Source of the DNA: Escherichia phage rV5_ev147
Sequence record: LR597647
Length of the DNA stretch: 64,000 nucleotides
Reading direction: 5' to 3' (one strand)
In this document: positions 26,075 through 59,965 of the stretch, one piece after another
Layout: every line of letters begins with the position of its first letter
Position numbering within the stretch: position 1 is the stretch's first letter
Translations under genes and position numbers: made by a program
Notes under the pieces: model-generated
Database searches by the model: none
What the model was told of the DNA's origin: nothing
What the model saw: the letters and a program-made list of their open reading frames with translations, nothing else

Positions 26075-27124
26075 ATGAATTTAACACCTCGCAGAACCAT
26101 GGTACACGGCATGAAAGAAAAACAGAACGGTTTCGAACCTATGAGTAATAAAATGTTTGGTATGCCGGGCGGTATCATGGAAACATACAGCTACCCAACA
26201 CCTGTTGTTGACCACGTTCTTTATATCGACGATTTGGAAGACTTACAAGATCATATGTCTCGTCTGCAGACGATCCGTATGGCTCAGCCGGAAGAAAGCA
26301 TTCGGGTGATCATCAATAGCCCTGGGGGTTGCGTGCACATTGCAATGGCTTATCTGCAGGCATTCCGAGAGTCTCAGGCAAGCGTTGTTGCACATGCTGA
26401 AGGGATGTGCTGCTCTGCTGGAACAATCTTATGGCTTGGTTGTAAAGAACGTACTGTGGCTCCGGACACAGAGTTTATGTTCCACTACTATCAAGGTGGC
26501 ACTTATGGTAACGGTGTGAACATGAATACTCAGGTCAGCTACTGGAAAAAACGTTTTGAACGCCTGATCGAAAAATACTACGGTGGGGTGCTGACAGAAG
26601 ATGAGATCGCATCCATCACAGCTGGTGGCGAAGTGTGGTTGGACGGAGAAGAGCTGGCAGCACGCACTGGAGCTATTATTCTGGATGAAGGCAACATACA
26701 ACGCATCCAGAACGGACAAAAACCGAAAAAGCTTCTGGCAAAAGGTGATGAAGAAGGCGTGTTAGGTGAAGCAGGTCTTCCGGAGATTCACCAGTGCACA
26801 TCTTTAGATGAGTTAGTTCATGCTGTTGAATCTGCAAAAGCGGGTGGTTCGAAAGGTGATGTTCACACTGTGTTCCTGAATCTGCAGATGGAAAGTGGCG
26901 AGACCGTCAGAATTGCCCTGAGTGAGATTACTTCAGAAGATCTGCAGAGATTCTCTGTCGTTGAACTTCAGGATATTCTGTCTCAATTGAAGACTACTCT
27001 GAACGGCGGTGAAGAGGTTAAGGTGAAAGATAAGACTCGCAAGCGTCTGGTGGACAATATTATTAAAACAGCAAAAGAGCTCAATGAAAAAATCCTGGGT
27101 GCAGGAATTGTCGAAGAAGCTTAA
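26075..27124 (+). CDS. ClpP-like serine peptidase with C-terminal extension
   Basis: INSPGGCVH and GMCCSAG resemble ClpP active-site regions; 349 aa. Confidence 0.55.
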   Translation: MNLTPRRTMVHGMKEKQNGFEPMSNKMFGMPGGIMETYSYPTPVVDHVLYIDDLEDLQDHMSRLQTIRMAQPEESIRVIINSPGGCVHIAMAYLQAFRESQASVVAHAEGMCCSAGTILWLGCKERTVAPDTEFMFHYYQGGTYGNGVNMNTQVSYWKKRFERLIEKYYGGVLTEDEIASITAGGEVWLDGEELAARTGAIILDEGNIQRIQNGQKPKKLLAKGDEEGVLGEAGLPEIHQCTSLDELVHAVESAKAGGSKGDVHTVFLNLQMESGETVRIALSEITSEDLQRFSVVELQDILSQLKTTLNGGEEVKVKDKTRKRLVDNIIKTAKELNEKILGAGIVEEA

Positions 27125-27175: not shown

Positions 27176-27709
27176 ATGACTTGTGCTAGAAAACCTGATG
27201 AACAACGTAACGCCTACGATGAGTATGTGACACCGGAGTGGTGTGCAGAAGGGCTGTATGACCTTATTCCGTTCCCAGAAGACTGGACCTACTTAGAGCC
27301 TTGCAGGAATAGTGCCTCAGGTGTGTTCTACTCCCGTATGCCGTTAGGATCTGCATGGGGAGAAATACAAGAAGGTGTTGACTATCTGAATACAGAATAC
27401 AACCATGTTGACTGTATTATCACCAACCCACCATACAGCCTGGCTCGTGAGTTTGTAGACAAGGCGTTGAAAGATGCTGACGTAGTTATTATGCTTTTGC
27501 GTCTTAATTTTCTGGAAAGCAAAGCCAGATTTGAATGGTGGCTTGATAATGCACCTACTACTGTGATCACAATATCTAAGCGTCCATCATTTCAATCAAA
27601 CGGCAGAACTGACGGGCAAGCATATGCATATTTTGTGTGGGATAAGAAAAACCGTTTAGACTTGCCGCCGTTTATGTGGTTGGCACCCCCAGAGGTAGAC
27701 CTGAAATGA
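27176..27709 (+). CDS. Small phage-type N6-adenine DNA methyltransferase
   Basis: Motif IV ITNPPYS; 177 aa. Confidence 0.5.
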   Translation: MTCARKPDEQRNAYDEYVTPEWCAEGLYDLIPFPEDWTYLEPCRNSASGVFYSRMPLGSAWGEIQEGVDYLNTEYNHVDCIITNPPYSLAREFVDKALKDADVVIMLLRLNFLESKARFEWWLDNAPTTVITISKRPSFQSNGRTDGQAYAYFVWDKKNRLDLPPFMWLAPPEVDLK

Positions 27710-28026: not shown

Positions 28027-28266
28027 ATGTACAAGTCATTTTCAATCTACTCAAGACAGGCGAAACACTGCACAGAGATCCTGATCACTCAGAAAAAATC
28101 TGTGGAAGGTGAGTGGGAATATCACCATAAAATGTTGCGTCCAGACTGGGTTTTTGATAGACTTATTGCTATGATCCCTCTCGGAGAAGTATACCCTCTG
28201 ACAGCCCATCGCGATGCTTGGGATTTAATTGATTACATAGATTCATTTAAGGAGCCTAGATTATGA
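28027..28266 (+). CDS. Hypothetical protein
   Basis: Start refined to ATG 28027 after AGAGGGGG. Confidence 0.35.
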   Translation: MYKSFSIYSRQAKHCTEILITQKKSVEGEWEYHHKMLRPDWVFDRLIAMIPLGEVYPLTAHRDAWDLIDYIDSFKEPRL

Positions 28267-28661
28267 AGATTGAGATTACTAAAGAAGGTAAGAAAGTGTC
28301 CGGCAACTATGCAACAGTAATTCGGGATTTAATGTTTGAAGCCACCAAGATCGGTACATCTAAAGTTGGTCAAACTGTTAGTGTGAAAAGTAATATCTCC
28401 ACAGGAGAGAAGGTATTCATTGTGGTCAAAGGGCAGGATCCCGTGGAAGGAACAGTGGGCCGAGGTGGCTACCTGTGCATTTCTGAAGAGCCGCGTATGT
28501 TAGTGGCTGACGCTACTATGGGTGGGAAACGTGTGTGCGAGGCGGATGAGGTAATGATTATCCAACCTGTTGATCCAGATGACCCAGCAACTTGGGTGGT
28601 AGGAAATGAAATCTTCTCTTTAGAAGAGTTATCCTTCCCAGCACCGCGCTCTGTTCAGTAA
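28263..28661 (+). CDS. Hypothetical protein, possible distant member of the small acidic family
   Basis: MKIEITKEG start and acidic tail; GGAG SD. Confidence 0.4.
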   Translation: MKIEITKEGKKVSGNYATVIRDLMFEATKIGTSKVGQTVSVKSNISTGEKVFIVVKGQDPVEGTVGRGGYLCISEEPRMLVADATMGGKRVCEADEVMIIQPVDPDDPATWVVGNEIFSLEELSFPAPRSVQ

Positions 28662-28698
28662 TAATTTATCTTACCAGGGACGGTAGGTAGGAGGTAGC

Positions 28699-28932
28699 AT
28701 GAAAGTTAAATTTCTTACAGATTTAGGGTACCCTTCCTTGGTTGACTGTGTTGGTAAAATTGTGGAAGCAAAACGGCTATCTGCAAACGAGAATGTTGTC
28801 CTGGTTAAAGGGAAGGATTTACTAGCTGCAGGTGCAGAGTCTGGCAGGATCTCTCCTGATTATATGTATTACCTATCTTTAAGTAATCTGCCAGAGCGAG
28901 GCGGTAAAGGCCTTGAAGTTGTGGAGGAGTGA
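28699..28932 (+). CDS. Small acidic protein, paralog family A
   Basis: MKVKFL...VGKIVEA...VLVKGKDLLAAGA...LEVVEE aligns with ORFs 32258, 32475, 34346. Confidence 0.5.
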   Translation: MKVKFLTDLGYPSLVDCVGKIVEAKRLSANENVVLVKGKDLLAAGAESGRISPDYMYYLSLSNLPERGGKGLEVVEE

Positions 28933-29462
28933 CAGGTATGCTTCTGATTAACTGGGAAGACCTCTATGGGGACAAAGACCCTGTTGCGTTTGTTGATCGT
29001 AGGTGGAGATACACTGAAGAACAACTGGCGGCAAAAAATTTAACTGCAAAACGCAGAAAGATCATCCAGTGCAAGTACAAATACGCACAGTTTGCTGCAA
29101 AAGTGTCTCCACAAATCGAGAACTTTGTGCTTAAATTGTATGACGAGTACCTCAAATTCAAATTGGATTTTGTGCAGGTGTACCGTGCACAGGTACGACC
29201 AGATACCAACATATGTAGATGGAAGGTTGTTTGTGAAGGTAAAGATTTGCCGCTCAGCTTGACAATTGAGTGGCGTTATGGGTATCATGAGTGTGGTCTG
29301 TATGATATTTGGGATGTCATTGTAGATCCTGCTAAGCATCTGAACACAGAGGAGCTGGAATATATCAATAAGGTTATTCTCGATATGTTTTTCAGCTACA
29401 CACATGAAAACTCTGAGAAAGAACGGGATAATTTTCTTGACACCCTCAGCGACCATTTGTAG
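28929..29462 (+). CDS. Hypothetical protein
   Basis: 177-aa ORF; no motif recognised. Confidence 0.4.
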   Translation: MTGMLLINWEDLYGDKDPVAFVDRRWRYTEEQLAAKNLTAKRRKIIQCKYKYAQFAAKVSPQIENFVLKLYDEYLKFKLDFVQVYRAQVRPDTNICRWKVVCEGKDLPLSLTIEWRYGYHECGLYDIWDVIVDPAKHLNTEELEYINKVILDMFFSYTHENSEKERDNFLDTLSDHL

Positions 29463-29492
29463 TATACAATTTAACCTACAAAGGGAGGACCA

Positions 29493-29720
29493 ATGAGTAT
29501 AAATGTTGTGCTAATAGGTTACCTGGTAATGTCCGTTATAACAGCGGTATTCTTGACAGGTGTATGCATCGTGTCCAGACGAAGGGTGAAGTTTGATGAT
29601 TTTATCACCATCATCACTGCTGCACCTTTTTGGCCTGTTGTTATCTTCATCGTAATAATGTGCCTAGTTGATTACTACAAGAATATCAGGAAGGAGAGTA
29701 GGGATGGAGACCGCACCTAA
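29493..29720 (+). CDS. Small membrane protein (two predicted TM helices)
   Basis: Hydrophobic stretches VVLIGYLVMSVITAVFLTGVCIV and IITAAPFWPVVIFIVIMCLV. Confidence 0.4.
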   Translation: MSINVVLIGYLVMSVITAVFLTGVCIVSRRRVKFDDFITIITAAPFWPVVIFIVIMCLVDYYKNIRKESRDGDRT

Positions 29721-29921
29721 AACTATCTATACTGTTCTTAAAGAGATTGCGTTCTACGCAGATCTTAGCCAGGCACCTTTATGGGAAAAGAGCATGTATT
29801 TAAAATGGTGCGTTAATTTAGGGAGACCTTCCAGTGTTTCAAGCCATGTTTATTGAGATGCTATCTGGGATATTGTTACTGGTAGCCATCTTAGGTGGTG
29901 CAGTTCTGATGTATAACTATC

Positions 29922-30125
29922 TTGAAAAAGGAGACAGCAATGGTAAAAAATAAATCTTTAGAGCAGGCTGAAAACCTTCTCCACGAGCTGGTAAAGGAGT
30001 GGAAAGTTGAATACTCAGATTTTAATGCACGAGAGGGTGAAGATTATTGGCCTACGGAGCGCTCAGAGGGCGAATGGTATCAAGATTTTATAGAGTGGTT
30101 ATATCAGACGTGCGATGAGGGGTGA
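29922..30125 (+). CDS. Hypothetical protein
   Basis: 67-aa ORF. Confidence 0.3.
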   Translation: MKKETAMVKNKSLEQAENLLHELVKEWKVEYSDFNAREGEDYWPTERSEGEWYQDFIEWLYQTCDEG

Positions 30126-30592
30126 CGATGTTTGTTAAATATGTAAAAACGTGCCTCAACAGTCTTGGCAGAGAGCATTGGTACACCTTGCTTGAAAAAG
30201 GGGAAATTTTAACAAAATCTGGAAAGATAACTTTGATACCTCTTGATAGTAAAGGTAAAGACCCGTCACGACTTGTTATAGATGATTACGTTACAGGTGT
30301 GACGTTCGAGGTCTCTGTGGAGAGGTTAATACGCAGAGCTGGCGGCCCTTATGACCGAAGAGAGTATGTTTTCGATTCCGTTACAGAGATGGGGGAGCAT
30401 CCGTCTTTAATGTTCAGGATGGTAATCAGAGATATGAGGTCATCTATAGATAGGATCGTAAAGGACATTAAGGAACCTTTTAGAGTAAAAGTTAAGAAGT
30501 TTTTCGATTCTAAGATTAACATACTCGCCGTTGCACTAGGTGTAGTTCAACTTCTGTTAATTTTGCACTATTTTGAACTACTATTTAAGTAG
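30122..30592 (+). CDS. Hypothetical protein
   Basis: 156-aa ORF with hydrophobic C-terminus. Confidence 0.4.
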   Translation: MTMFVKYVKTCLNSLGREHWYTLLEKGEILTKSGKITLIPLDSKGKDPSRLVIDDYVTGVTFEVSVERLIRRAGGPYDRREYVFDSVTEMGEHPSLMFRMVIRDMRSSIDRIVKDIKEPFRVKVKKFFDSKINILAVALGVVQLLLILHYFELLFK

Positions 30593-30654
30593 TAGTTGAG
30601 ATATGGCACAAAGGATGTGCCATAGTGAAATAAACTAAGAAAGAGGTAGAGAGA

Positions 30655-31002
30655 ATGCCAAAGATTAAAACGTTATTACTGTGGGTAGCTGTTTTAGCTT
30701 TTATAGGGTACTGGACTTGGGAAACTGAATTAAAAGATATCGGATATACCAGTCTTGAGAGCAAGGCGTGCATTGGCATAACCGATGCGTTCAGGCAAAA
30801 TGCTATGGATCACGAATGTGTTGATGCAGATATAGATGAGAAACTGTCTAAGGACAAAGATTTTTACCATGGGCATGCTTTACTTGATAGTGGTGACACT
30901 GTAGAGTTCTGGTCGTGGTTTCGTGAAGATGGAACAATAAAAACAGCAGTAAAGATCTCTAACAAAGAGTTAATGCTGTTGCAGCAAAAGGAGGCTCAAT
31001 GA
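30655..31002 (+). CDS. Hypothetical membrane-anchored protein
   Basis: N-terminal TM segment LLLWVAVLAFIGYW; AGAGGTAGAGAG SD. Confidence 0.4.
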   Translation: MPKIKTLLLWVAVLAFIGYWTWETELKDIGYTSLESKACIGITDAFRQNAMDHECVDADIDEKLSKDKDFYHGHALLDSGDTVEFWSWFREDGTIKTAVKISNKELMLLQQKEAQ

Positions 31003-31286
31003 TCTGGATATCCTATGCTGATGGCACCATGCTGTATACTGCAGGTACCAGATATGAAGTTCAGGAGAACGATAAAAAATTTATCGTAAAAACATTTGAC
31101 AAGGACGACAACCTTTTGCTAGAATTGACTTACAAAGTTGGAGAGGTATCCAATATCCAGTTGGATTGTGGTCATAAAGATAATCCACTCAAAAAACCTG
31201 GAGTAGGTAAGGCTTCAGAAGAACGTCTGTCTCGTATTGCAGAAAGCGTTTCTCCCCAAAAATCTAAGAAGAGGACTAGAAAATGA
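30999..31286 (+). CDS. Hypothetical protein
   Basis: ORF overlapping by ATGA. Confidence 0.35.
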   Translation: MIWISYADGTMLYTAGTRYEVQENDKKFIVKTFDKDDNLLLELTYKVGEVSNIQLDCGHKDNPLKKPGVGKASEERLSRIAESVSPQKSKKRTRK

Positions 31287-31477
31287 AAAACTTACGTTTT
31301 AACACTTATTACTACAACACATTGAATGATTTGTATTATATTGTTCGAAGTAAAAGTCCTGAAACAGTCCTATTCTGCCGCGAACCTTTCAAAGGGGAGG
31401 AAGTAGAGTCTGAGATGAATGTTAGCCAGATCACCTCTTTGTTGCTCTCAGGCGCAATGGAAGAAGCAATATTCTAA
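31283..31477 (+). CDS. Hypothetical protein
   Basis: ORF overlapping by ATGA. Confidence 0.35.
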   Translation: MKNLRFNTYYYNTLNDLYYIVRSKSPETVLFCREPFKGEEVESEMNVSQITSLLLSGAMEEAIF

Positions 31478-31495
31478 ACCAGGCAGGAGGGTTTT

Positions 31496-31684
31496 ATGAA
31501 GCACTATTGCCTGTCTGGTAGAATGGGTGCAGATTGTGATTGGGTTTTCTTAAAACTTGTCAGCATTCGAGAGTTCATCCCAGAGGAAGAGCAAGAAAGC
31601 GAGCTGATGTCATGGATCAACCATTACGGTAACACTTTTCGGCATGTTAAGGTAGAAGAGTTGCCAAGCGAGGCTGAATTATGA
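31496..31684 (+). CDS. Hypothetical protein
   Basis: ORF with GGAGG SD. Confidence 0.35.
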   Translation: MKHYCLSGRMGADCDWVFLKLVSIREFIPEEEQESELMSWINHYGNTFRHVKVEELPSEAEL

Positions 31685-31977
31685 AACTTTTTGAGTGGTT
31701 TAAAAAGTTTAAATATAAAGCTGTAGCCATCGTGCCGTGGTCCATTCAGTGGGTTGATGAAGGTGGTCTACCGATACCTGGTGACAAAGATACTGGGTAC
31801 TGGATTATGATGGAGAACGGGTTTGGAAAGCGAAAGTATACGTGCACAAACTCTACTCGATCTGCACTTAATAGAGTGCCTGGTTACAAACTTATGGTTG
31901 TGTGGAAAATGTCAGGCGTGCCTCCAGCCAATGCTCAATTTCTTACTGACAATCCGACCACGGTAGAGGGAGATTGA
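31681..31977 (+). CDS. Hypothetical protein
   Basis: ORF overlapping by ATGA. Confidence 0.35.
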   Translation: MKLFEWFKKFKYKAVAIVPWSIQWVDEGGLPIPGDKDTGYWIMMENGFGKRKYTCTNSTRSALNRVPGYKLMVVWKMSGVPPANAQFLTDNPTTVEGD

Positions 31978-32261
31978 TAATGAAAAAGATTAACAGTAGT
32001 GAAGTAGAGTTTAAACTTGTCGGAAAAGGCACTTACTGGGAAGTTCGTCAAAAGGTATATTTGTTCGGTCTTATTCCCTACTGGTCTAAATTCTACTGGG
32101 GAGCTAACGAGTTGGGAAGATACGCCACCAAATCAATGGCACTTATTGGTATAGCAGAGTACATTGCAGCCCGAGACAGGGTTGGAACCACTTATTACTA
32201 CACTGCTGACGATATTCGTAACAGTGTTTACGTCCCACAACCACCTGATGGAGACCGTTGA
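31974..32261 (+). CDS. Hypothetical protein
   Basis: ORF overlapping by ATGA. Confidence 0.35.
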   Translation: MIMKKINSSEVEFKLVGKGTYWEVRQKVYLFGLIPYWSKFYWGANELGRYATKSMALIGIAEYIAARDRVGTTYYYTADDIRNSVYVPQPPDGDR

Positions 32262-32485
32262 TGAAAGTTAAAGTTTTAGATTCAAGCTTCTATATTGGTC
32301 AGGAGCCTTTAGTAGGAAAAGTGTTTACTGCTGTCCCTAACGAAGATTACCCTGACCTTTTAAAAATAAAAGGAGCAGATCTTATTGCCGCTGGTGCATC
32401 TCAGGAATGCTTTGACAGTCAGTGGACCTATAACTTTGCCCTAGGTGAGGATGTAGAGGTAGTGGAGGACGATCATGAAGGTTAA
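32258..32485 (+). CDS. Small acidic protein, paralog family A
   Basis: MKVKVLDSSFYIGQ...GKV...KGADLIAAGA...VEVVEDD. Confidence 0.5.
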   Translation: MMKVKVLDSSFYIGQEPLVGKVFTAVPNEDYPDLLKIKGADLIAAGASQECFDSQWTYNFALGEDVEVVEDDHEG

Positions 32486-32729
32486 AATTCTTGATTCTAA
32501 CGTCTACTTGGGACAATCCTTCCTGAATGGAAAGGTCGTTCCTGCGGTATACTTTGAAGGGTTGCCGTGGGATGATCCTGTGCGGCAACATCACAGTTAT
32601 GTAGGCCACAACGTGGTGTTTATCTTGGGATCAGACCTGATCACCGCTGGTGCACCTGAATATTATTTCGGGGAAGAGTCCTATTATGCCTTTGGGGCAG
32701 GGTCAGATGCAGATATTGTAGAACTGTGA
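32475..32729 (+). CDS. Small acidic protein, paralog family A
   Basis: MKVKILDSNVYLGQ...GKVV...LGSDLITAGA...DIVEL. Confidence 0.5.
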   Translation: MKVKILDSNVYLGQSFLNGKVVPAVYFEGLPWDDPVRQHHSYVGHNVVFILGSDLITAGAPEYYFGEESYYAFGAGSDADIVEL

Positions 32730-32741
32730 TGGGTAACCGTT

Positions 32742-33140
32742 GTGAAAAATAAACTATTCAAAGTTACAATGAAAATTCGCGGAGCTTGGAGCGTAAAGCA
32801 AGGGCGTATCCCAGAATTTGAGAAAGACTTCTACGTAGTCTCCACCTCGGAGGAGGCTGCATGCTGGCAGGCTGGCTATGCCTATGCAAGAACCTGGTAC
32901 GAAGGATACCAGACCGGGGGATATGACGGAGAAATTATCAGCAGGGGTGTGGAAGAAATTAATGTGTTGACAAGTGAAAAAGTTTTTGTTATAGTGCATC
33001 CAGATTCCAGAGTGAAGCATTACTGGAACGCCAGAACAAAAACTTGGACACCGTTTGCAGATTCTGCTACGCCACTTTTAAACCAGAAAGCTCTTGACTC
33101 TGCCCCAAGTTATGGGATTGTTGAAGAAAAGCTAAACTGA
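32742..33140 (+). CDS. Hypothetical protein, paralog of ORF 34946
   Basis: FVIVHPDSRVKHYWNARTKTWTP matches FVMRHPHSNIAYYWDVLNNEWTP in ORF 34946-35341. Confidence 0.45.
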   Translation: MKNKLFKVTMKIRGAWSVKQGRIPEFEKDFYVVSTSEEAACWQAGYAYARTWYEGYQTGGYDGEIISRGVEEINVLTSEKVFVIVHPDSRVKHYWNARTKTWTPFADSATPLLNQKALDSAPSYGIVEEKLN

Positions 33141-33157
33141 AACAGTGAGGTACTAAC

Positions 33158-33448
33158 ATGATGGATTTAGTTCTGGACACGGATAACACCGGAGAGTTTA
33201 AAAAGGATGGTGTAACAAGCGTTGACCAATCCTTCCCTGCCAAGATTGACTCAAAATGGACCTACAAGTTTGATGGAGAGATCTTCGCAAATGATGAGAA
33301 GGTTGTAGATGCTGCAGCCATTTTGAACGCTCTAGGGTACGACCCTGTGAATTCTTTGATCAAGGATCCTGTTGAGTTTGCAGAGTATGTTCGAAAAATG
33401 GCAGATCTTGCTGTGGATATTTTAAAAACTATCGACGACAAGCTGTAA
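33158..33448 (+). CDS. Hypothetical protein
   Basis: 96-aa ORF. Confidence 0.35.
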   Translation: MMDLVLDTDNTGEFKKDGVTSVDQSFPAKIDSKWTYKFDGEIFANDEKVVDAAAILNALGYDPVNSLIKDPVEFAEYVRKMADLAVDILKTIDDKL

Positions 33449-33454
33449 AAACTG

Positions 33455-33484
33455 TTGACACAACGCTTCAGATTTAGTATCATT
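33455..33484 (+). promoter_or_regulatory. Sigma70-type promoter upstream of hpf
   Basis: TTGACA (33455-33460), 18-bp spacer, TATCAT (33479-33484). Confidence 0.45.
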
Positions 33485-33530
33485 GTTTTAAAAGAGGGTT
33501 TGGTTCCCTCTTCTTTAAAAGGAACACGTT

Positions 33531-33848
33531 ATGCAAATTGAAATCACTGGCAACGTAGAAATCACTGAAGGTATGGTGTCTTTCATTTCCCACAAAATGT
33601 CTAAGCTGGAGCGTTTGCACCCATCTGCCAACTATGCACGTGTGAGTGTAAAAGTTGAAAATGATCACCAGGAAGTTATGGCGTTCATTTTTGACAATTC
33701 TGGAAAAGAAGTTATTGCCAAGGCTAAAGGCAGTGATGCTTACGAGGCAACTGACCGTATGGTAGATGTTGCAGCACGTCAGCTGGCTAAATGCGGTGGA
33801 AAGAAAGGTAAGGGGAAAGGCAAAGTAAAGATTGACTTTGGAGAATGA
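33531..33848 (+). CDS. hpf: Ribosome hibernation promoting factor / RaiA-family protein
   Basis: MQIEITGNVEITEG...KLERL...VSVKVEN...AKGSDAYEATD...ARQLAK parallels E. coli HPF over its length, as recalled. Confidence 0.7.
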   Translation: MQIEITGNVEITEGMVSFISHKMSKLERLHPSANYARVSVKVENDHQEVMAFIFDNSGKEVIAKAKGSDAYEATDRMVDVAARQLAKCGGKKGKGKGKVKIDFGE

Positions 33849-33985
33849 GGTGCTACAATGGGTGTGATTGAGAAATTAGTCCCAAATGTAGAGATTGCAT
33901 GCTTTGAAATTATGTTTGCAATCGCAGTTGTAGTTAATGTGTTAGGTTACGGCTATTAATATCAAATAATTGAGGAGACCTCTAA

Positions 33986-34255
33986 ATGAAAATTAAATTA
34001 TTCAAAACTGAGCTGGCAGACAAAAATTGTGGTCTGGTTGAAGGCATGATTGTTGAAGCACAACCAGTGGACTATATGAAGGTGGTTCGTGATGCCCTGG
34101 GTGAAGGTTTTGATCTGATGGAGCCAGCCCTGCGGGAAGATGTTATCGAGATGGCTAAAAAGCACACACCTGAAGGTTTGGTGGTGTTTATTGCACCGGG
34201 TAACGGAGAAGAGTTGATTGTAACTCCTGATGTGTATGAGATTGTAGAGGAATAA
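33986..34255 (+). CDS. Small acidic protein, paralog family B
   Basis: MKIKLFK...GEGFDL...VVFIAPGNGEE...YEIVEE aligns with ORFs 35418 and 35679. Confidence 0.45.
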   Translation: MKIKLFKTELADKNCGLVEGMIVEAQPVDYMKVVRDALGEGFDLMEPALREDVIEMAKKHTPEGLVVFIAPGNGEELIVTPDVYEIVEE

Positions 34256-34345
34256 TCCTGCTTGGATTAGCATACTTCCTCGATAAGGAAGGTTTGTAAT
34301 TATTTGTGGGAAAGGAATCCCATCTCTTACCAGAGGTGATACTAT

Positions 34346-34609
34346 ATGATTGTTTATTTTAAAACTTCAGGTGGATACCCTGATTCTCAAAGCTTGATCG
34401 GAAAAACGTGCACAGCATACTCACCTCTTGATGAGGAGGTAAGCGATATTCTACGAAATATGTATCGGATTGATCCCCAAGAAGCTTTTGATCAAAACCT
34501 TGTATTTGTCAAGGGCTCAGACATGAAGTCTTTGGGAGCATTCCCTGAAGCAGATGATGATGCCGTTTATTCGTTCATGACCCCTTTTGAAGCTATGGTT
34601 GTTGGGTGA
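34346..34609 (+). CDS. Small acidic protein, paralog family A
   Basis: GGYPDSQSLIGK...LVFVKGSDMKSLGA shared with ORF 28699. Confidence 0.45.
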   Translation: MIVYFKTSGGYPDSQSLIGKTCTAYSPLDEEVSDILRNMYRIDPQEAFDQNLVFVKGSDMKSLGAFPEADDDAVYSFMTPFEAMVVG

Positions 34610-34613
34610 TAAT

Positions 34614-34946
34614 ATGAAAGTACGCTTTATTGGTGAAACAATTCCTGTGCATCTCAGGTCGCCTGAAGATTCTGCGGATCTTGCATCTCAGAAGGCGAGA
34701 GGTTATGATAAGAAAGTAATCTCAACCGATGTAGAACTTGAGGCTACTAGTCTACCTGACCCTGCTGCATTCTTTAATCATTATGGATACTATTTCAGCA
34801 ATCTGATGAATATCGGTGAGCTTGTGTTTATTAGTGGTGGAGAAATTGTTAGCAAGCTTGGCGGCGATCCGGATATCTTTCATGAAACCTGTCCTTTTGC
34901 ATTTGTGGTAGGTTCAGATGTGGAAGTTATTGAGGAGGTGCGGTAA
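34614..34946 (+). CDS. Small acidic protein, family-related
   Basis: Start refined to ATG 34614 (MKVRFIGE); ends VEVIEEVR. Confidence 0.4.
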   Translation: MKVRFIGETIPVHLRSPEDSADLASQKARGYDKKVISTDVELEATSLPDPAAFFNHYGYYFSNLMNIGELVFISGGEIVSKLGGDPDIFHETCPFAFVVGSDVEVIEEVR

Positions 34947-35341
34947 TGGTAAGCCTATACCGTGTTGAGTATAGCTCAGATACTGTATACAACGTAAGAA
35001 GCAAAGATCGCAGCGACAGAGTGCAAGAAATGTATGTTCTTGCCGACAGTCCGTTATCTGCAGCGTTCAAGGCAGGGGCTCTTGCATCTCGTTGGAAATT
35101 TGAAGGTGGATCTTTCTATGAAGAAACCCTTGAAGATTCTGTTGTTATTTCTTCTGTAGAGGTTTCAGATGACTACGAAGGGAAAAAGTTCGTAATGCGG
35201 CACCCACACAGCAACATTGCGTACTACTGGGATGTTCTGAACAACGAGTGGACCCCAGATCTTCAGAAGGCTACTGTGCTAACACCGTTTTTGGCAGATA
35301 AGTTCCCACCAGAAGGTAATTTATCCGCACTGTTTCAGTAA
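34946..35341 (+). CDS. Hypothetical protein, paralog of ORF 32742
   Basis: Shared HP(D/H)S...YW...WTP block with ORF 32742-33140. Confidence 0.45.
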   Translation: MVSLYRVEYSSDTVYNVRSKDRSDRVQEMYVLADSPLSAAFKAGALASRWKFEGGSFYEETLEDSVVISSVEVSDDYEGKKFVMRHPHSNIAYYWDVLNNEWTPDLQKATVLTPFLADKFPPEGNLSALFQ

Positions 35342-35417
35342 TTTTCTTGCACACAGGTGTTGACAACGCCAACCCTGTGTGAAATAATACCTTCATCTTA
35401 ACAAGACAGGGGACCGA

Positions 35418-35678
35418 TTGATGAAGATTAAATTGAAAAACCTTGAAACGGCAGAGATTCAGGACGGTGTTGATTTCCGTTCTAAAGATGGTGACATCTT
35501 AGAGGTAAATATTCCAACCTACGAGCTGATTAAAGGTTTTGGCAACGTTCCGGAAGAGGATATTACAGAAATTCTTATGATGTTGATTCTTGACGGAACT
35601 GTGTTTGTAGGTGAAGGTGAGAACGCTATTGCAATCCCAGGCCATTTTTATGAAGTAGTTGACGAAGAGGTGCTGTAA
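35418..35678 (+). CDS. Small acidic protein, paralog family B
   Basis: MMKIKLKNL...KGFGNVPEEDITEILMM...VFVGEGENAIAIPGHFYEVVDEE. Confidence 0.45.
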   Translation: MMKIKLKNLETAEIQDGVDFRSKDGDILEVNIPTYELIKGFGNVPEEDITEILMMLILDGTVFVGEGENAIAIPGHFYEVVDEEVL

Positions 35679-36029
35679 ATGAAAGTAGAAATTACCGGTT
35701 TTGATGTGAATGTGGTTCCGGAAGATATTTTAGCTAAACTTCCAGAAGGTTTTGGTAACGGCGTTGTGGTGGATGCTGTTCCTCCTACCAAAGACATTCT
35801 GCTGCAGTATGGTGTAGCAGAGGAAGATGTCGATAAAGTTCTTACAATGATGGCAATCGATCGTGTTGTCGTTGTTAAAGGTCTCGATAATTTTGAGAGT
35901 GATCCCCTGATTATTCGTGGAGATGACTACAAAATCATCGATAATGAAGGCCAAGAGTTCTATGAACCTTGTGCAGAAGATATTCTTAACTTATTACTGG
36001 AAGCAGGTACCGAAGAGGAGGACGAATAA
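35679..36029 (+). CDS. Small acidic protein, paralog family B
   Basis: MKVEITGF...EGFGNG...VLTMMAIDRVVVVKG; acidic tail. Confidence 0.45.
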   Translation: MKVEITGFDVNVVPEDILAKLPEGFGNGVVVDAVPPTKDILLQYGVAEEDVDKVLTMMAIDRVVVVKGLDNFESDPLIIRGDDYKIIDNEGQEFYEPCAEDILNLLLEAGTEEEDE

Positions 36030-36358
36030 TGAAGATTGACCCGTTACTGAAGGCTCGTGCAGAAAAAGCGTACACCATTAAGTTGACCAACTTGGTTCCT
36101 ACTTGTCATCCGGATGTAGGTTGGCCCGAAGGTTTGGTGGAGGGAACTGTAACAGCTGCATACCTTCCTAACATCAAATACCTCATGGAAATCTTGGAGC
36201 TGGATGAGGAAACGGCAGAAGAGTTCCAGTTGGACATGAAACAAAGTGGGACTCTGGTTATTCACGGGTGGTACAATACTAAAGATGCAGAAGACCCTCT
36301 GGTAACTTCTAATCTGGCATATGAAATCTTAGGGCCTTTGAACCTGGAGGAAGACTAA
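36029..36358 (+). CDS. Hypothetical acidic protein, possible family member
   Basis: 109-aa ORF, ATGA overlap, acidic C-terminus. Confidence 0.4.
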   Translation: MKIDPLLKARAEKAYTIKLTNLVPTCHPDVGWPEGLVEGTVTAAYLPNIKYLMEILELDEETAEEFQLDMKQSGTLVIHGWYNTKDAEDPLVTSNLAYEILGPLNLEED

Positions 36359-36645
36359 TGAAAGATCTGGTTAAGATTAAGATTAAAGATACCAATGGAG
36401 AACTCAGCCATTTTGGAATTAATGATGGTGACGAGCTGATCGCACACCTGCCTACCAAGGAGGTTGTAAGCAAAGCAGTTGCCGGAGAAGAAGCTGCAAT
36501 GCAGGCTGCAGGTGTGGATGAAAACTATGTAGCTATGTGCATGTGCCGAGATCAGGTTGTTCTGTATAAAGCGTATCGACCAAACGGAGCCACGGAGTGG
36601 CTTGTATTCCGACCCGAAGGATATGAAATCTTAGAGGCACTATGA
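36358..36645 (+). CDS. Hypothetical acidic protein, possible family member
   Basis: 95-aa ORF ending YEILEAL. Confidence 0.4.
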   Translation: MKDLVKIKIKDTNGELSHFGINDGDELIAHLPTKEVVSKAVAGEEAAMQAAGVDENYVAMCMCRDQVVLYKAYRPNGATEWLVFRPEGYEILEAL

Positions 36646-38450: not shown

Positions 38451-38479
38451 AGGACGCTCTGTGGCGTCCTTTTCTTTAT
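38451..38479 (+). terminator. Rho-independent terminator
   Basis: AGGACGC-tctgtg-GCGTCCT followed by TTTCTTTAT. Confidence 0.55.
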
Positions 38480-39336: not shown

Positions 39337-39463
39337 CACACAATTAGCTGCCCGGCTAAAGTGCTGGAAGCACCTATAACACATCTTTCAACTAAATTTC
39401 CTACCACCACAATCACTTACCTCCCACACATGACTGTTTGCTTGTTTAGTGAGCAGTCATGCC

Positions 39464-39491
39464 TTGACATTCTTGCCTATCCTGATAAAAT
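39464..39491 (+). promoter_or_regulatory. Sigma70-type promoter with extended -10 and overlapping 8-bp inverted repeat
   Basis: TTGACA (39464-39469), 16-bp spacer, TGaTAAAAT; CATGACTG...CAGTCATG palindrome just upstream; no ORF follows. Confidence 0.45.
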
Positions 39492-39497
39492 TAAGTT

Positions 39498-39775
39498 CTT
39501 CTCTTTTCTTTTACCGAGTAATTCGGGTTTTCTGTTCTCTTCGGTTTGAAGGGGTATAGAGATACACCTGAGTGAACAGGGTGAACAACCGAACCATTAG
39601 CTATGGCATTAGCATGGCGAAGCGGACGGGTGACGAAAGAGGGGCCGGAGGACACCAGTCACTGCCATATGATATATGGGTGATAACCTGAAGAGTCTGA
39701 ATAAGTGTTTAAGTACCAGTCAGAGGAAAAGGTGAATGGTAGCCGAAGGGGGGGAGGGGGGTTTCTTGTATCTTT
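39498..39775 (+). ncRNA. Candidate non-coding RNA ending in a G-rich tract
   Basis: About 280 nt downstream of a good promoter with no ORF; local hairpin CCGAGtaatTCGG; ends GGGGGGGAGGGGGGG + T-run. Confidence 0.25.
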
Positions 39776-40806
39776 AATTTGTATATTATGTATACACTTG
39801 TAAACCAATCTAATCTGAATCTGTTTACCACACAAAGCGGATAGAGACAAATATTGCCTATTAAACTTGAATTATTTATAGAAAATACCACAACACCCCT
39901 TAAGTCTTTGATTTTACACACAAATCCTACAGATATTCAACCTCCATATTTAACATACTTGTAACATATTCCATACTCTACCTGTCTGATCAATTTCCCC
40001 AACTACATTCTCATATTTTCCCTGTCTGTACTACCCCTGCCCCGCCGGGAGTCCCGTCATATCTGGCTTTCCAGCAAATATCACACCCACAAATATCATT
40101 GCCTGAAGAGGGTTTCATCCCATAATACCTGCCTTACCTGAAGAGCGCTTCATACACCACGTAAATTTTTTAATTGACCTCCCCCTGCCCCGCCGGAGAG
40201 GTTGGCTTTTCCCACACAGACCTGAAGAGTCAGCCAGAAATATCTGAATAGGCCCAATTCTACCACGATTTTGACCTGACCTACAGGGAGGCCCGAAGGG
40301 TCTAGCTTTCAGCTAGAGTCCTTGCAGGACCTACAGGAGCGCTGCCAGGCGGACGGAATGGGAATACTTCTCATTCTTATAACAATTCTCAAATATCGAG
40401 GCAGTGAGAGAAATTAATAGGCCAGGCCGTTCACACAGTGGCACAACATTTGCAACCTATTTTGTGTGGATGAATGAGAATACCTATCATTGTGAGAACT
40501 GTTATCATTACGGGCAATTTAACATAATACCCATTATGCGCACCACTGGCGATACATACAAGGATTGATAACATGAGTTACAGTTTACGCATATAACAAT
40601 CATATTTCTTACTATTTGTGTGGGATATAGTTAGCAGCCAATAGATTAGATATTGACCTGCGGACTTCCAACCGTCTAGACGTCTAAACGCCCACACAAC
40701 AAGGATTATACATACATTACTGAATGTAAACAGGACCGCAAAAATGCTACCATACCAGTTTGTAAATTTTTCATGCAGCACTTGACAAAGAGGAGGAAAA
40801 CTTGTC

Positions 40807-40852
40807 TGACATAATGGTGACATAACTGACACGATTGACATAATTGACATGC
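40807..40852. repeat. Five tandem TGACA(T/C)(A/G) boxes at about 10-bp phasing
   Basis: TGACATAA at 40807, 40818, 40836 and variants at 40827, 40845. Confidence 0.7.
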
Positions 40853-40936
40853 CTGACTGTTCACGCTCTCATTATTCCCGCCCTTACTATTCACGCCCTT
40901 TACTGCTTACATTCTTGATAGTCTACATGCTTAATG

Positions 40937-40992
40937 GTTTACATGACTAATAGTTTACATAGCTAACTGTTTACGCATAAACTGTTTACACA
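40937..40992. repeat. Four GTTTAC(A/G) iteron-like repeats at 15-16 bp spacing
   Basis: GTTTACATG 40937, GTTTACATA 40953, GTTTACGCA 40969, GTTTACACA 40984. Confidence 0.7.
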
Positions 40993-41002
40993 GATATGAT
41001 AA

Positions 41003-41302
41003 GCCATGCCATTCGTTTGCATGATAACAATAACGATCAACAACAATAAAGACTGAAATGATAACGTTGTTGATTTGACTGACTAACAATTAACAGGCTA
41101 ATAATCTATGACATAATATAAAAGCAGGGCAACTATTAGCAGATCTATAGTTGCCTTGCTTGTTATGTCATGATTAACTAAATACAAGGCAACTATGATC
41201 TGATTAATAGTTTGCAGACAAACTATCACGGGGGTGATGGTTACTGCTTTTATATTATGTCGCGACTCCGTCGCGCCATGCCATTCGTTTGCATAGTTGC
41301 CT
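41003..41302. repeat. Composite repeat locus: 20-bp direct repeat, 18-bp inverted repeat and GGCAACTAT palindromes
   Basis: GCCATGCCATTCGTTTGCAT at 41003 and 41275; GACATAATATAAAAGCAG (41110) with exact reverse complement at 41244; GGCAACTAT/ATAGTTGCC palindrome at 41128-41155. Confidence 0.75.
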
Positions 41303-41955
41303 TATTGTTACAGATAAAATAATTGTATTGTTAATTATTTCTTATCTTTCTATTAGTCATCTAATGATTCCAGTTAGTATAGTAACGTACAGTAAACATT
41401 AGACGACTAAAGATTTCTCTGATTATGATAACTTGCCGTGACAATTTCAGACTGTTTACGAAAAATGTTGACACCTGAGCTGATTTATGTTATGCAATTT
41501 AAACGAATAATTATTTTATGCAGGTATTGACTATTCTGTTATTCTATGGTCGGAATAAATACTTAGCAGGCTATAGAATGGTGAGCGTACGTAAATTCTG
41601 AGATCTGTCGGCTATAGTTATACTCGATTTTTCACGTAGAACACGCTTTTTGGTTTGTGTAAGTGTATGACTTATAAAGATTTTTAGTTGTTGACAAGAT
41701 ATTGAAGATGTGCATCAGGTTAAATTTTGTGCAATAGCTGCATTACGTGCAATTTTGGAAGGAAAACGGGTAAAAATAGCACCGCTACCACACAATGAAA
41801 GGTTATGCAATAGTTATTTTACATGTATATTTGTACAGTGTGTGGGATTGATGGCTCGTCAATTATTCCACTTGCCAGGTAGGGCCGTTTATGGTAGGGA
41901 GGAAGAGCAGACAAAAAGAAAGGGACCTAAGCCCCTTGATAATTCAGTTAAAAAA

Positions 41956-59014: not shown

Positions 59015-59378
59015 TCATCAGATCTGCCATAGCGTCACCAACGAAGAGGACAACCACATCGTTGACAGCGTCAGCATCATCTTTGTTGACGTTGCTGAAT
59101 TTAGGACACACAGCAATGATCATATAGACACCGTTGCCCACCTGAACTGTCCGTGTGGTGCACATCATGGCGGTATTTGTGCCTTCTTTGAAGGCGAAGC
59201 CTTGAAGACGCTCCTCTAGAGTGTTACCGGTAGATTTCAGAAGCGCCAGCTCGTCCAAGGCATAGATGATATCTCCGGAAGTTAGTGTTGCCTTTCCATC
59301 AGACACCATAATCACTCCATCAGCACCGTCAAGCTTAGAGGCTTCAAAGATATCAATATCCCAAATATTTTTCATCAC
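58986..59378 (-). CDS. Hypothetical protein
   Basis: 130-aa ORF. Confidence 0.4.
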   Translation of the reverse strand: MMKNIWDIDIFEASKLDGADGVIMVSDGKATLTSGDIIYALDELALLKSTGNTLEERLQGFAFKEGTNTAMMCTTRTVQVGNGVYMIIAVCPKFSNVNKDDADAVNDVVVLFVGDAMADLMNAGEAANED

Positions 59379-59707
59379 GCTTCCTCGTCGTCTAAGTAAT
59401 CATCAAGAGAGGTGAAGATTTCACCGAAGTATTCTAAGATTTCTAGCTCACGTGTGGTGCAGCAAACATAATCTCCTTGGTCGTCCTTAATAGTGGCCTC
59501 TTTACCCAGAATATCTACTTCAAGTTCATCGTTCAACAGGACGGCCCCTGTGTAAACTTTGTCAGCTGTGCAGTCCCGAAAAGCAGAGTCCTTCTCCAGA
59601 TAGTCTGGCTTAACCTTGGCTTTAATTCGTTGATATTGTTTGGTCATTGCTGTGGTCCCCTTTCGTTTTGATAGGGCCATTATAGTAGGCCCTATCACTG
59701 TTGTCAA
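59375..59707 (-). CDS. Hypothetical protein, paralog of ORF 59711
   Basis: SAFRDCTADKVYTGA matches RAFKDCTVGAIYEAE in the neighbouring ORF. Confidence 0.4.
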   Translation of the reverse strand: MTTVIGPTIMALSKRKGTTAMTKQYQRIKAKVKPDYLEKDSAFRDCTADKVYTGAVLLNDELEVDILGKEATIKDDQGDYVCCTTRELEILEYFGEIFTSLDDYLDDEEA

Positions 59708-59710
59708 GTA

Positions 59711-59965
59711 TTAATGTTCAGGTTTTACAAAAACTACTTCATTAACAGTGCACCAGACAGAGTCTCCTTCATCATCTTTAAAGGTAAGGCACTGTGCTGA
59801 GTTTTCCAGCTCATCGATCTCTTCTTGTGATAAAGGGGCCCCTTCTTCCAGGAGGGCTTTTACCAGAGGGTTCTCACAAAACTCTGCTTCATAAATTGCA
59901 CCGACTGTGCAATCTTTAAAAGCTCGGTCATTTGCAACGCATTCTGACTTCAAAGTAATTTTCAT
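59711..59965 (-). CDS. Hypothetical protein, paralog of ORF 59375
   Basis: Shared (A)F(R/K)DCT block; acidic Cys-containing small protein. Confidence 0.4.
   Translation of the reverse strand: MKITLKSECVANDRAFKDCTVGAIYEAEFCENPLVKALLEEGAPLSQEEIDELENSAQCLTFKDDEGDSVWCTVNEVVFVKPEH

Follow-up and report, generated by a model that had tools for sequence, protein, structure and literature searches.

Small acidic proteins of bacteriophages such as T7 Ocr, T4 Arn and T7 Gp5.9 serve as inhibitors or DNA mimics; their folds differ from the one described below, and mimicry is exerted by ordered surface charge. Lambdoid phages also carry moron or accessory genes, in the nin/ea regions and in the Q-lysis cargo slot. 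These systems are compared here with a block of small genes on the + strand of Escherichia phage rV5_ev147 (sequence record LR597647), lying at about 28.7-36.6 kb of the 64,000-nucleotide stretch that was analysed (the window). Twelve of the roughly 30 genes of this accessory block, annotated as hypothetical in all annotated genomes examined, reduce to three families of paralogs, termed A, B and C; for A and B the fold is predicted with confidence. The expansion is old, and each paralog is individually kept under purifying selection.

The likeness of the A and B proteins to Ocr, Arn and Gp5.9 lies in small size, low isoelectric point (pI), an early-type context and accessory status, and it is one of analogy only; no sequence or structural match to these three proteins emerged in any search made. 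Single-copy homologs of family A occupy the lambdoid slots just named, and one of them has swapped DNA with a Vequintavirus copy, whereas the rV5-like arrangement comprises five A and five B copies within the early/middle operon of a virulent phage, where they are stably inherited and not sporadic. To the SH3/KOW/PsaE families (SH3 domains, PsaE, the KOW domains of Spt5, NusG and L24, the retroviral integrase C-terminal domain and OapB) the likeness is that of a predicted barrel fold, but the A and B proteins are strongly acidic and carry no Pfam SH3, KOW or PsaE signature. To our knowledge the G-x-(D/E)-L-I-x-x-G-A motif that follows strand 3 has no counterpart in those families, and no solved SH3, KOW or PsaE chain was matched by sequence, the lone match being a designed protein (E 0.023). 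The resemblance is at the level of the fold and not of membership.

Genes are named here by their start positions in the window. The corrected family map comprises five A, five B and two C genes:

28699..28932, + strand: A member 1, 77 residues, pI 5.4; lone copy upstream of the main array
32261..32485, + strand: A member 2, 74 residues, pI 4.1
32475..32729, + strand: A member 3, 84 residues; short insert between strands 2 and 3
34346..34609, + strand: A member 4, 87 residues; longer insert in the strand 2-3 loop
34614..34946, + strand: A member 5, 110 residues; longest insert
33986..34255, + strand: B member 1, 89 residues, pI 4.4; apart from the B array, most divergent B
35421..35678, + strand: B member 2, 85 residues
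35679..36029, + strand: B member 3, 116 residues, net charge -21; predicted barrel with helical hairpin insert and acidic C-terminal helix
36029..36358, + strand: B member 4, 109 residues
36358..36645, + strand: B member 5, 95 residues
32742..33140, + strand: C member 1, 132 residues; directly after the first A-A pair
34946..35341, + strand: C member 2, 131 residues; directly after the second A-A pair

With the exception of 28699, the A and B proteins have pI values of 4.05-4.8 and net charges of -6 to -21. A Shine-Dalgarno site precedes every A and B gene, and in the four-gene B array the stop of one gene overlaps or abuts the start of the next.

Shared ancestry within the families is real and stands far above chance. 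The + strand gene set was rebuilt after that of the annotated sister phage Murica, with orthologs taken from three large protein searches. Within the window, BLASTP joins the members of family A at E-values of 1e-14 to 1e-3 (1.9e-13 for 32261-32475 and 4e-6 for 28699-32261) and the two C genes at 1.6e-7. In the leave-one-out tests, each protein was held out in turn and scored, along with 2000 composition-matched shuffles of its sequence, by a profile of the remaining proposed members. The five A proteins score 19-67 bits (30.4 for 28699 and 18.8 for 34346) and four of the B proteins, 35421, 35679, 36029 and 36358, score 14-29 bits (15.1 for 36029 and 13.6 for 36358), with 0/2000 shuffles reaching the score in each case; 33986 scores 12.2 bits, which 1/2000 shuffles reach. 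Across families, the profile of B detects none of the A members, nor does that of A detect any B member. A word-index search with a single sequence gave close orthologs only.

Profile-profile comparison with hhalign, run between per-gene profiles that included orthologs from a much more divergent lineage, gives probabilities of 88-99% for nine of the ten A-A pairs (99.3% for 28699 with 32261, 96% for 34614 with 32475, and 88-91% for 34346 with 28699, 32261 and 32475) and 97.7% for the C pair (E 2e-12, 121 columns). Within family B, 35421-35679 (94.2%, E 1.2e-7, 84 columns) and 35679-36029 (93.8%, E 1.7e-7) are both joined at 94% with E near 1e-7, 36358 reaches 59%, 37% and 32% with 35679, 36029 and 35421, and 33986 is the weakest member at only 16-19% with 35421 and 36358. 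In the complete sister genome MG065658.1 (905 open reading frames, both strands) exactly five A, five B and two C genes are found, all in this block.

A preliminary description of this DNA had proposed at least eight related small open reading frames. Their kinship is real by BLASTP, leave-one-out scoring and hhalign, and 0-1/2000 shuffles for the ten A and B genes agree with it; the grouping needs correcting. The four genes assigned to sub-family A, among them 32258, which begins at TTG and whose annotated ATG is 32261, hold their place at 0/2000 shuffles each, as do 33986, 35418 (a TTG start of 35421) and 35679 in sub-family B (1/2000, 0/2000 and 0/2000), and the proposed second pair, 32742 and 34946, is borne out by the values given above and by common assignment to phrog_7379. 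One gene changes family: 34614, placed earlier in B, scores 24.2 bits against A and -0.5 bits against B. Among the four suggested distant members, 36029 and 36358 are true B genes (0/2000 shuffles each), and 28263 and 39121 are non-members. The former gives 1.8 bits against A and 1.0 against B (114 and 443 of 2000 shuffles) and belongs to phrog_5748, a separate family that spans the subfamily and is shared with Seunavirus; the latter gives 3.2 bits against B (36/2000 shuffles) on a short N-terminal match only. The family A domain, defined by beta1 MKVK-L, G-K-V-x-A, G-x-D/E-L-I-x-x-G-A, Y-x-F and E-V/I-V/I-E, is not found in 28263, in 39121 or in any B or C gene.

The end motifs on which that description leaned are present, but the N-terminal start and the terminal Glu-Glu are not diagnostic alone. 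A homolog of ribosome hibernation factor (HPF) that lies within the array at 33531 has a start of the MK(V/I)(K/E)I type (MQIEITG) despite its unrelated, known fold. The terminal Glu-Glu is often coded GAGGAG, which is the Shine-Dalgarno sequence of the abutting downstream gene, and the many acidic C-termini of the block arise partly because these codons serve both purposes. The last five residues contain on average 2.1 acidic residues in genes that hold the Shine-Dalgarno site of the next gene and 1.1 in the others, a difference in which family membership is a confounder. The motif of strand 5 is a property of the proteins themselves: 33986, which is followed by a gap of 90 nt, ends in YEIVEE. 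Dual-purpose Glu-Glu codons (GAGGAG or GGAGGA) that double as Shine-Dalgarno sites occur at ~28926-28932, 32470-32476 and 34935-34941, and further overlaps lie at approximately 35668-35673, 36018-36024 and 36346-36351.

The existing classifications capture part of this. PHROGs places 28699, 32261 and 32475 together in phrog_5009, which matches family A genes at E 1e-38 to 1e-4 (8e-36 for 28699), and it splits 34346, 34614 and the five B genes into single-gene families (phrog_13920, 13661, 11868, 12359, 12155, 12457 and 12794). Alongside phrog_5009 stand phrog_13367, 7345, 8603, 15322 and 20482, and distant A relatives match phrog_5009 and phrog_13367. All matching PHROGs are without known function, and the classification provides no fold, function or paralogy; the links of 34346 and 34614 to family A and the five-member B family are absent from it. 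Neither the ten proteins of families A and B nor 27 broad family A members matched a Pfam model at E-values up to 1, NCBIfam holds no model for the families, and no solved structure in the PDB was matched by sequence. The families are uncharacterised, and no description of them was found in the literature. The rV5 genome paper leaves the paralogs of this region unmentioned (PMC3606486).

Families A and B are predicted to encode SH3-like barrels of five strands. The AlphaFold2 model of 32261, built on an alignment of 35 sequences, is a five-stranded SH3-like barrel with one short helix (mean predicted local distance difference test score, pLDDT, 90.9), and that of 35679, on 42 sequences, has the same order of elements, to which a C-terminal helix and, between strands 2 and 3, a helical hairpin are added (mean pLDDT 81.3). 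The hairpin of B falls in the same strand 2-3 loop in which 32475, 34346 and 34614 bear inserts of rising length, and the two predicted structures share fold, topology and site of insertion. Both models match the same structures, namely SH3, KOW, OapB and the integrase C-terminal domain, with the Spt5/NusG KOW domains, ribosomal protein L24 and the RNA-binding OapB among the top neighbours. In BFVD, the B model has one significant match, to an uncharacterised 86-residue protein of Vibrio phage Vc1, which offers no functional lead. When the B insert is excised on structural grounds, the hhalign comparison of A with B rises to 34% (score 22.6; background maximum 19.5), and strands 1-3 align in register. 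The sequence evidence for a shared origin of A and B is suggestive, and their common ancestry is likely but unproven.

The age of the expansion follows from its conservation. Gene order is identical in six Vequintavirus genomes (A … A A C ? HPF B A A C B B B B), and a sister lineage, known from metagenome contigs only and diverged to 68-69% identity in ClpP and 85-88% in the methyltransferase, retains that order with its full set of five A and five B genes and the second C gene. Its orthologs are 29-83% identical to the window copies (41-83% when the ortholog of 35679 is set aside), and the first C gene (32742) is not detectable there. Pooled Nei-Gojobori ratios of nonsynonymous to synonymous substitution (dN/dS), which are gene-wide only, are 0.04-0.18 in family A, 0.03-0.25 in family B and about 0.05 in family C; those of neighbouring genes range over 0.006-0.35. 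It is the retention of gene order in a diverged lineage, together with dN/dS of 0.03-0.25, that marks the expansion as old and the genes as held by purifying selection.

The preliminary description had rightly noted repeated duplication and divergence of small proteins without assigned function, as three paralog families without a Pfam, NCBIfam or PDB match attest. It had gone on to infer an arms race with the host, and that step is at odds with an order kept at 68-69% ClpP identity, with dN/dS in the range of the neighbours and with a nearly fixed copy number. Elevated dN/dS relative to neighbouring genes was not seen gene-wide, nor was rapid gain or loss of copies in the six Vequintavirus genomes and the sister lineage, except that the sister lineage has a single detectable C gene and one additional, unrelated gene, and that a rare deletion fuses 32261 with 32475 in a few contigs. 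The case for a fast arms race is weak. The extra gene, absent from the window, encodes 98 residues of Pfam PF27050 (Phage_P22_Y8K6) and lies between C member 2 and the B array (L021 11389-11685, L022 11390-11686, L023 11092-11388).

Recombination and mosaicism among the copies and with outside homologs were seen, and both observed rearrangements break at a repeat that encodes the conserved motif:

32372..32401, + strand: 30-nt repeat, copy 1, encoding the G-A-D-L-I-A-A-G-A motif of 32261
32628..32657, + strand: 30-nt repeat, copy 2, 80% identical to copy 1 and encoding the same motif in 32475

In one 133 kb contig a clean deletion between the repeats fuses 32261 and 32475 into one gene. Two independent metagenome assemblies hold an array of Vequintavirus type whose 32261 ortholog is a hybrid: its first half shares 91% nucleotide identity with a lambdoid prophage gene, and the remainder is 93% identical to the window (L026 203-340 against L006 9996-10131; L026 309-1570 against window 32366-33627). 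This prophage chimera is a recent exchange between temperate and virulent coliphages with its crossover in the conserved motif; the chimeras seen are P0006, P0007 and P0008. The order A-A-C occurs twice, at 32261-33140 and 34346-35341, and this gene order suggests duplication of a cassette; the 30-nt motif segment apart, there are no DNA-level repeats between the two cassettes. Two open reading frames of note are present on another Vequintavirus contig (L024 169-1098 and 7502-8020): a 309-residue DUF723/T5orf172 gene, homing-endonuclease-like, stands between the PhoH and ClpP-region genes, and a 172-residue frame joins upstream sequence to the 32261 ortholog, as a longer reading-frame call or a real fusion.

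By its distribution the block is accessory and restricted to its lineage. Among cultured phages, A or B occurs in Vequintavirus only, including by tblastn with the family consensus, and no homologs of A, B or C are present in the syntenic regions of Seunavirus FENT2 and GEC_vB_MG, Klebsiella phage Iguana and Certrevirus CR3. An exhaustive HMMER search of 1.84 billion representative proteins gave 46 family A relatives at E up to 1e-3, mostly of 63-90 residues, with the consensus MKVKLLNDGGY…GKVV.A…I.G.ELI.AGA…Y.F..G.E.EIIEE. A few carry two or three tandem A domains; the extensions fused to A domains in distant relatives are unrelated to C, B or other window genes and contain no Pfam domain. 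A scan for related loci with P0113 gave no match, and with P0118 one partial match. Where genomic context is visible, the single-copy A homologs of temperate enterobacterial phages sit in accessory slots: between the Q antiterminator and holin, between RecT/YqaJ and NinX/xis/int, and between terminase and portal, adjoining an HNH endonuclease and DUF551.

The 9 kb of DNA in which the block lies are 100% identical to Escherichia phage rV5_ev156 (LR694165.1) of the genus Vequintavirus, and some 120 further Vequintavirus records match at more than 90% identity. Genes for a ClpP-like protease (26075-27124) and a DNA methyltransferase (27176-27709) lie upstream of the block, which is one section of an extended series of small genes ending near 39.3 kb, with a good terminator predicted at 38451-38470. 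According to the rV5 genome paper, the region falls within a single transcription unit, genes 82-163, and sigma-70-like promoters occur genome-wide (PMC3606486); on that layout the array shares its unit with genes of DNA replication and nucleotide metabolism. The consensus scan that gave the terminator also places promoter-like sites with a perfect TTGACA in intergenic gaps, among them one upstream of the four-gene B array and one upstream of the embedded HPF gene:

35360..35388, + strand: predicted sigma-70-like promoter, upstream of the B array; TTGACA, 17-nt spacer, AATAAT, extended -10 TG; 11/12 consensus matches
33455..33483, + strand: predicted sigma-70-like promoter, upstream of the HPF gene; TTGACA, 17-nt spacer, TATCAT; 11/12 consensus matches
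33531..33848, + strand: HPF/RaiA homolog, Pfam PF02482, E 1.8e-12; a non-member inside the array

The predicted promoters of sigma-70 type and the published layout fit early/middle expression by host RNA polymerase. The HPF homolog keeps its place in the array of the divergent sister lineage, and a phage-encoded HPF in mid-array is of interest in its own right.

These observations can tentatively be brought together, in an account that we favour and hold at somewhat below an even chance, as old families of acidic SH3-like modules that bind host proteins. The three families would have arisen by tandem duplication, perhaps including an A-A-C cassette, and would be transcribed from host-type promoters inside an early/middle operon. 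The A and B proteins would act in stoichiometric amounts as protein-binding modules that make contact with proteins of the infected host, whether as adaptors, decoys or inhibitors; neighbouring paralogs would probably work as pairs or hetero-oligomers, each with its own target or partner surface. Protein binding, oligomerisation, the host target and the timing of expression are what we infer; modules and pairs are proposed on account of the acidity of the proteins, the tandem-domain fusions elsewhere and the adjacent A-A gene pairs. The two- and three-domain A fusions of other phages parallel the adjacent A-A genes here, and the acidity argues for protein rather than nucleic-acid partners. A bolder version, rather improbable in our estimation, would make A and B a single superfamily of hetero-oligomerising acidic SH3-like decoys, common to rV5-like and lambdoid phages, that neutralise host immunity or a central host machine with one paralog per target, the G-x-D-L-I-x-AGA motif serving both as functional site and as the recombination joint for the shuffling of halves.

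Several points weigh against the account of acidic host-protein binders. The structural models rest on shallow alignments of 35-42 sequences that are largely paralogs, and on full profiles hhalign gives A and B 8.5% (P 0.004), so that their homology is not established by sequence. Barrels of SH3 type (Sm, KOW, OapB) also bind RNA, so that a nucleic-acid role is conceivable. The timing of expression rests on consensus promoters only, and searches of the literature gave no functional data on the A, B or C genes and no partner, target or phenotype. Nor does similarity back the duplication of an A-A-C cassette, as 32261 and 32475 are each other's closest relatives; gene conversion may account for this mispairing of the cassettes.

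The alternative offered by the preliminary description is that the genes are anti-defence effectors in an arms race, each paralog neutralising a different host immune system or allele and duplication tracking host defences. Small, acidic, accessory, lineage-specific genes with host-type promoters in their block would suit such a role, as would homologs in the moron and accessory hot-spots of temperate phages, recombination of paralogs at a conserved motif (including the swap with a prophage gene at 91% nucleotide identity) and the two allele classes of 32475, which are ~98% and ~78% identical to the window copy. We nevertheless consider this reading unlikely. The argument from an arms race is contradicted by the conservation and dN/dS data, namely an order and copy number that hold throughout the genus and in a sister lineage of deep divergence, and ratios of 0.03-0.25 with no excess over neighbours; moreover, no known anti-defence or host-takeover family was matched in Pfam, PHROGs (which has a host-takeover category), NCBIfam or the PDB, no dedicated anti-defence library (dbAPIS, AntiDefenseFinder) having been searched, and no published tie between Vequintavirinae genes and anti-defence activity was found. 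Stable retention and purifying selection of all paralogs, as for housekeeping-like roles, and residence in a transcription unit with replication and nucleotide-metabolism genes (PMC3606486) might instead point inward, to small adaptors of a chaperone-like or scaffolding kind that serve proteins of the phage itself, whether of replication, nucleotide metabolism or assembly. Such a role is disfavoured because Seunavirus, Certrevirus and the Klebsiella relative share the core machinery and lack the families, and single A homologs reside in unrelated temperate phages with different machinery; we regard it as improbable.

Held with less credence again, and in our judgement quite improbable, is the proposal that KOW/Sm-like barrels around a phage HPF bind ribosomes, RNA or partners of the NusG, S10 or Rho type and so redirect host expression. 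The structural neighbours (Spt5/NusG KOW, L24, OapB) and the HPF/RaiA homolog at a position kept in the divergent lineage speak for it, but a pI of ~4.1-4.8 and charges of -6 to -21 disfavour direct RNA binding, there is no KOW or Sm signature (Pfam being empty at E up to 1), and the proximity of HPF may be coincidence. That the similarities are an artefact of chance or composition, or that the reading frames are not genes, is scarcely credible. The MKxKx start and terminal Glu-Glu are weak and, as the HPF start and the GAGGAG Shine-Dalgarno sequence indicate, partly non-homologous; against this stand shuffle counts of 0-1/2000, hhalign values up to 99%, dN/dS well below 1, orthologs 41-83% identical in a divergent lineage and confident AlphaFold models. 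An artefact is refuted for the ten A and B and two C genes and holds only for 28263 and 39121.

Other features of the window and its relatives were seen in passing. The ClpP-like protease (26075-27124, + strand) has 349 residues with a long C-terminal extension past the protease domain; only residues to ~200 align with other phage ClpP proteins, and it is conserved across Vequintavirinae. A gene-poor interval of ~2.5 kb at ~39400-41900, where coding strand and GC skew switch, contains several promoter-like and terminator-like sites without a tRNA gene or Rfam match, and is probably the 'non-coding' box and gene 163/164 boundary of the rV5 paper (PMC3606486); tRNA genes and Rfam families gave no match anywhere in the window. 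On the minus strand, outside the block under study, lies a second pair of small paralogs (59375-59707 and 59711-59965; BLASTP E 1.5e-6 over 77 residues). Eighteen records (MG0656xx, e.g. MG065658.1, MG065654.1 and MG065672.1) are titled 'UNVERIFIED: Campylobacter phage' and share ~99% identity in this region with rV5-like phages of E. coli; the host label is doubtful.

The locus fits a known pattern in which large virulent phages maintain small accessory genes in multiple copies, and it corrects the assumption that a tandem array of paralogs signals a rapid arms race. An ancient expansion in which every copy is individually maintained points to sub-functionalised, non-redundant roles, and the exchange of a gene half between virulent and temperate phages shows that the small A domain moves between very different coliphages. 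With predicted structures, a corrected family map and this exchange to hand, the families form a tractable experimental target, and as rV5-like phages are widely used in E. coli O157 biocontrol and phage therapy, knowledge of the roles of their accessory genes has practical value.

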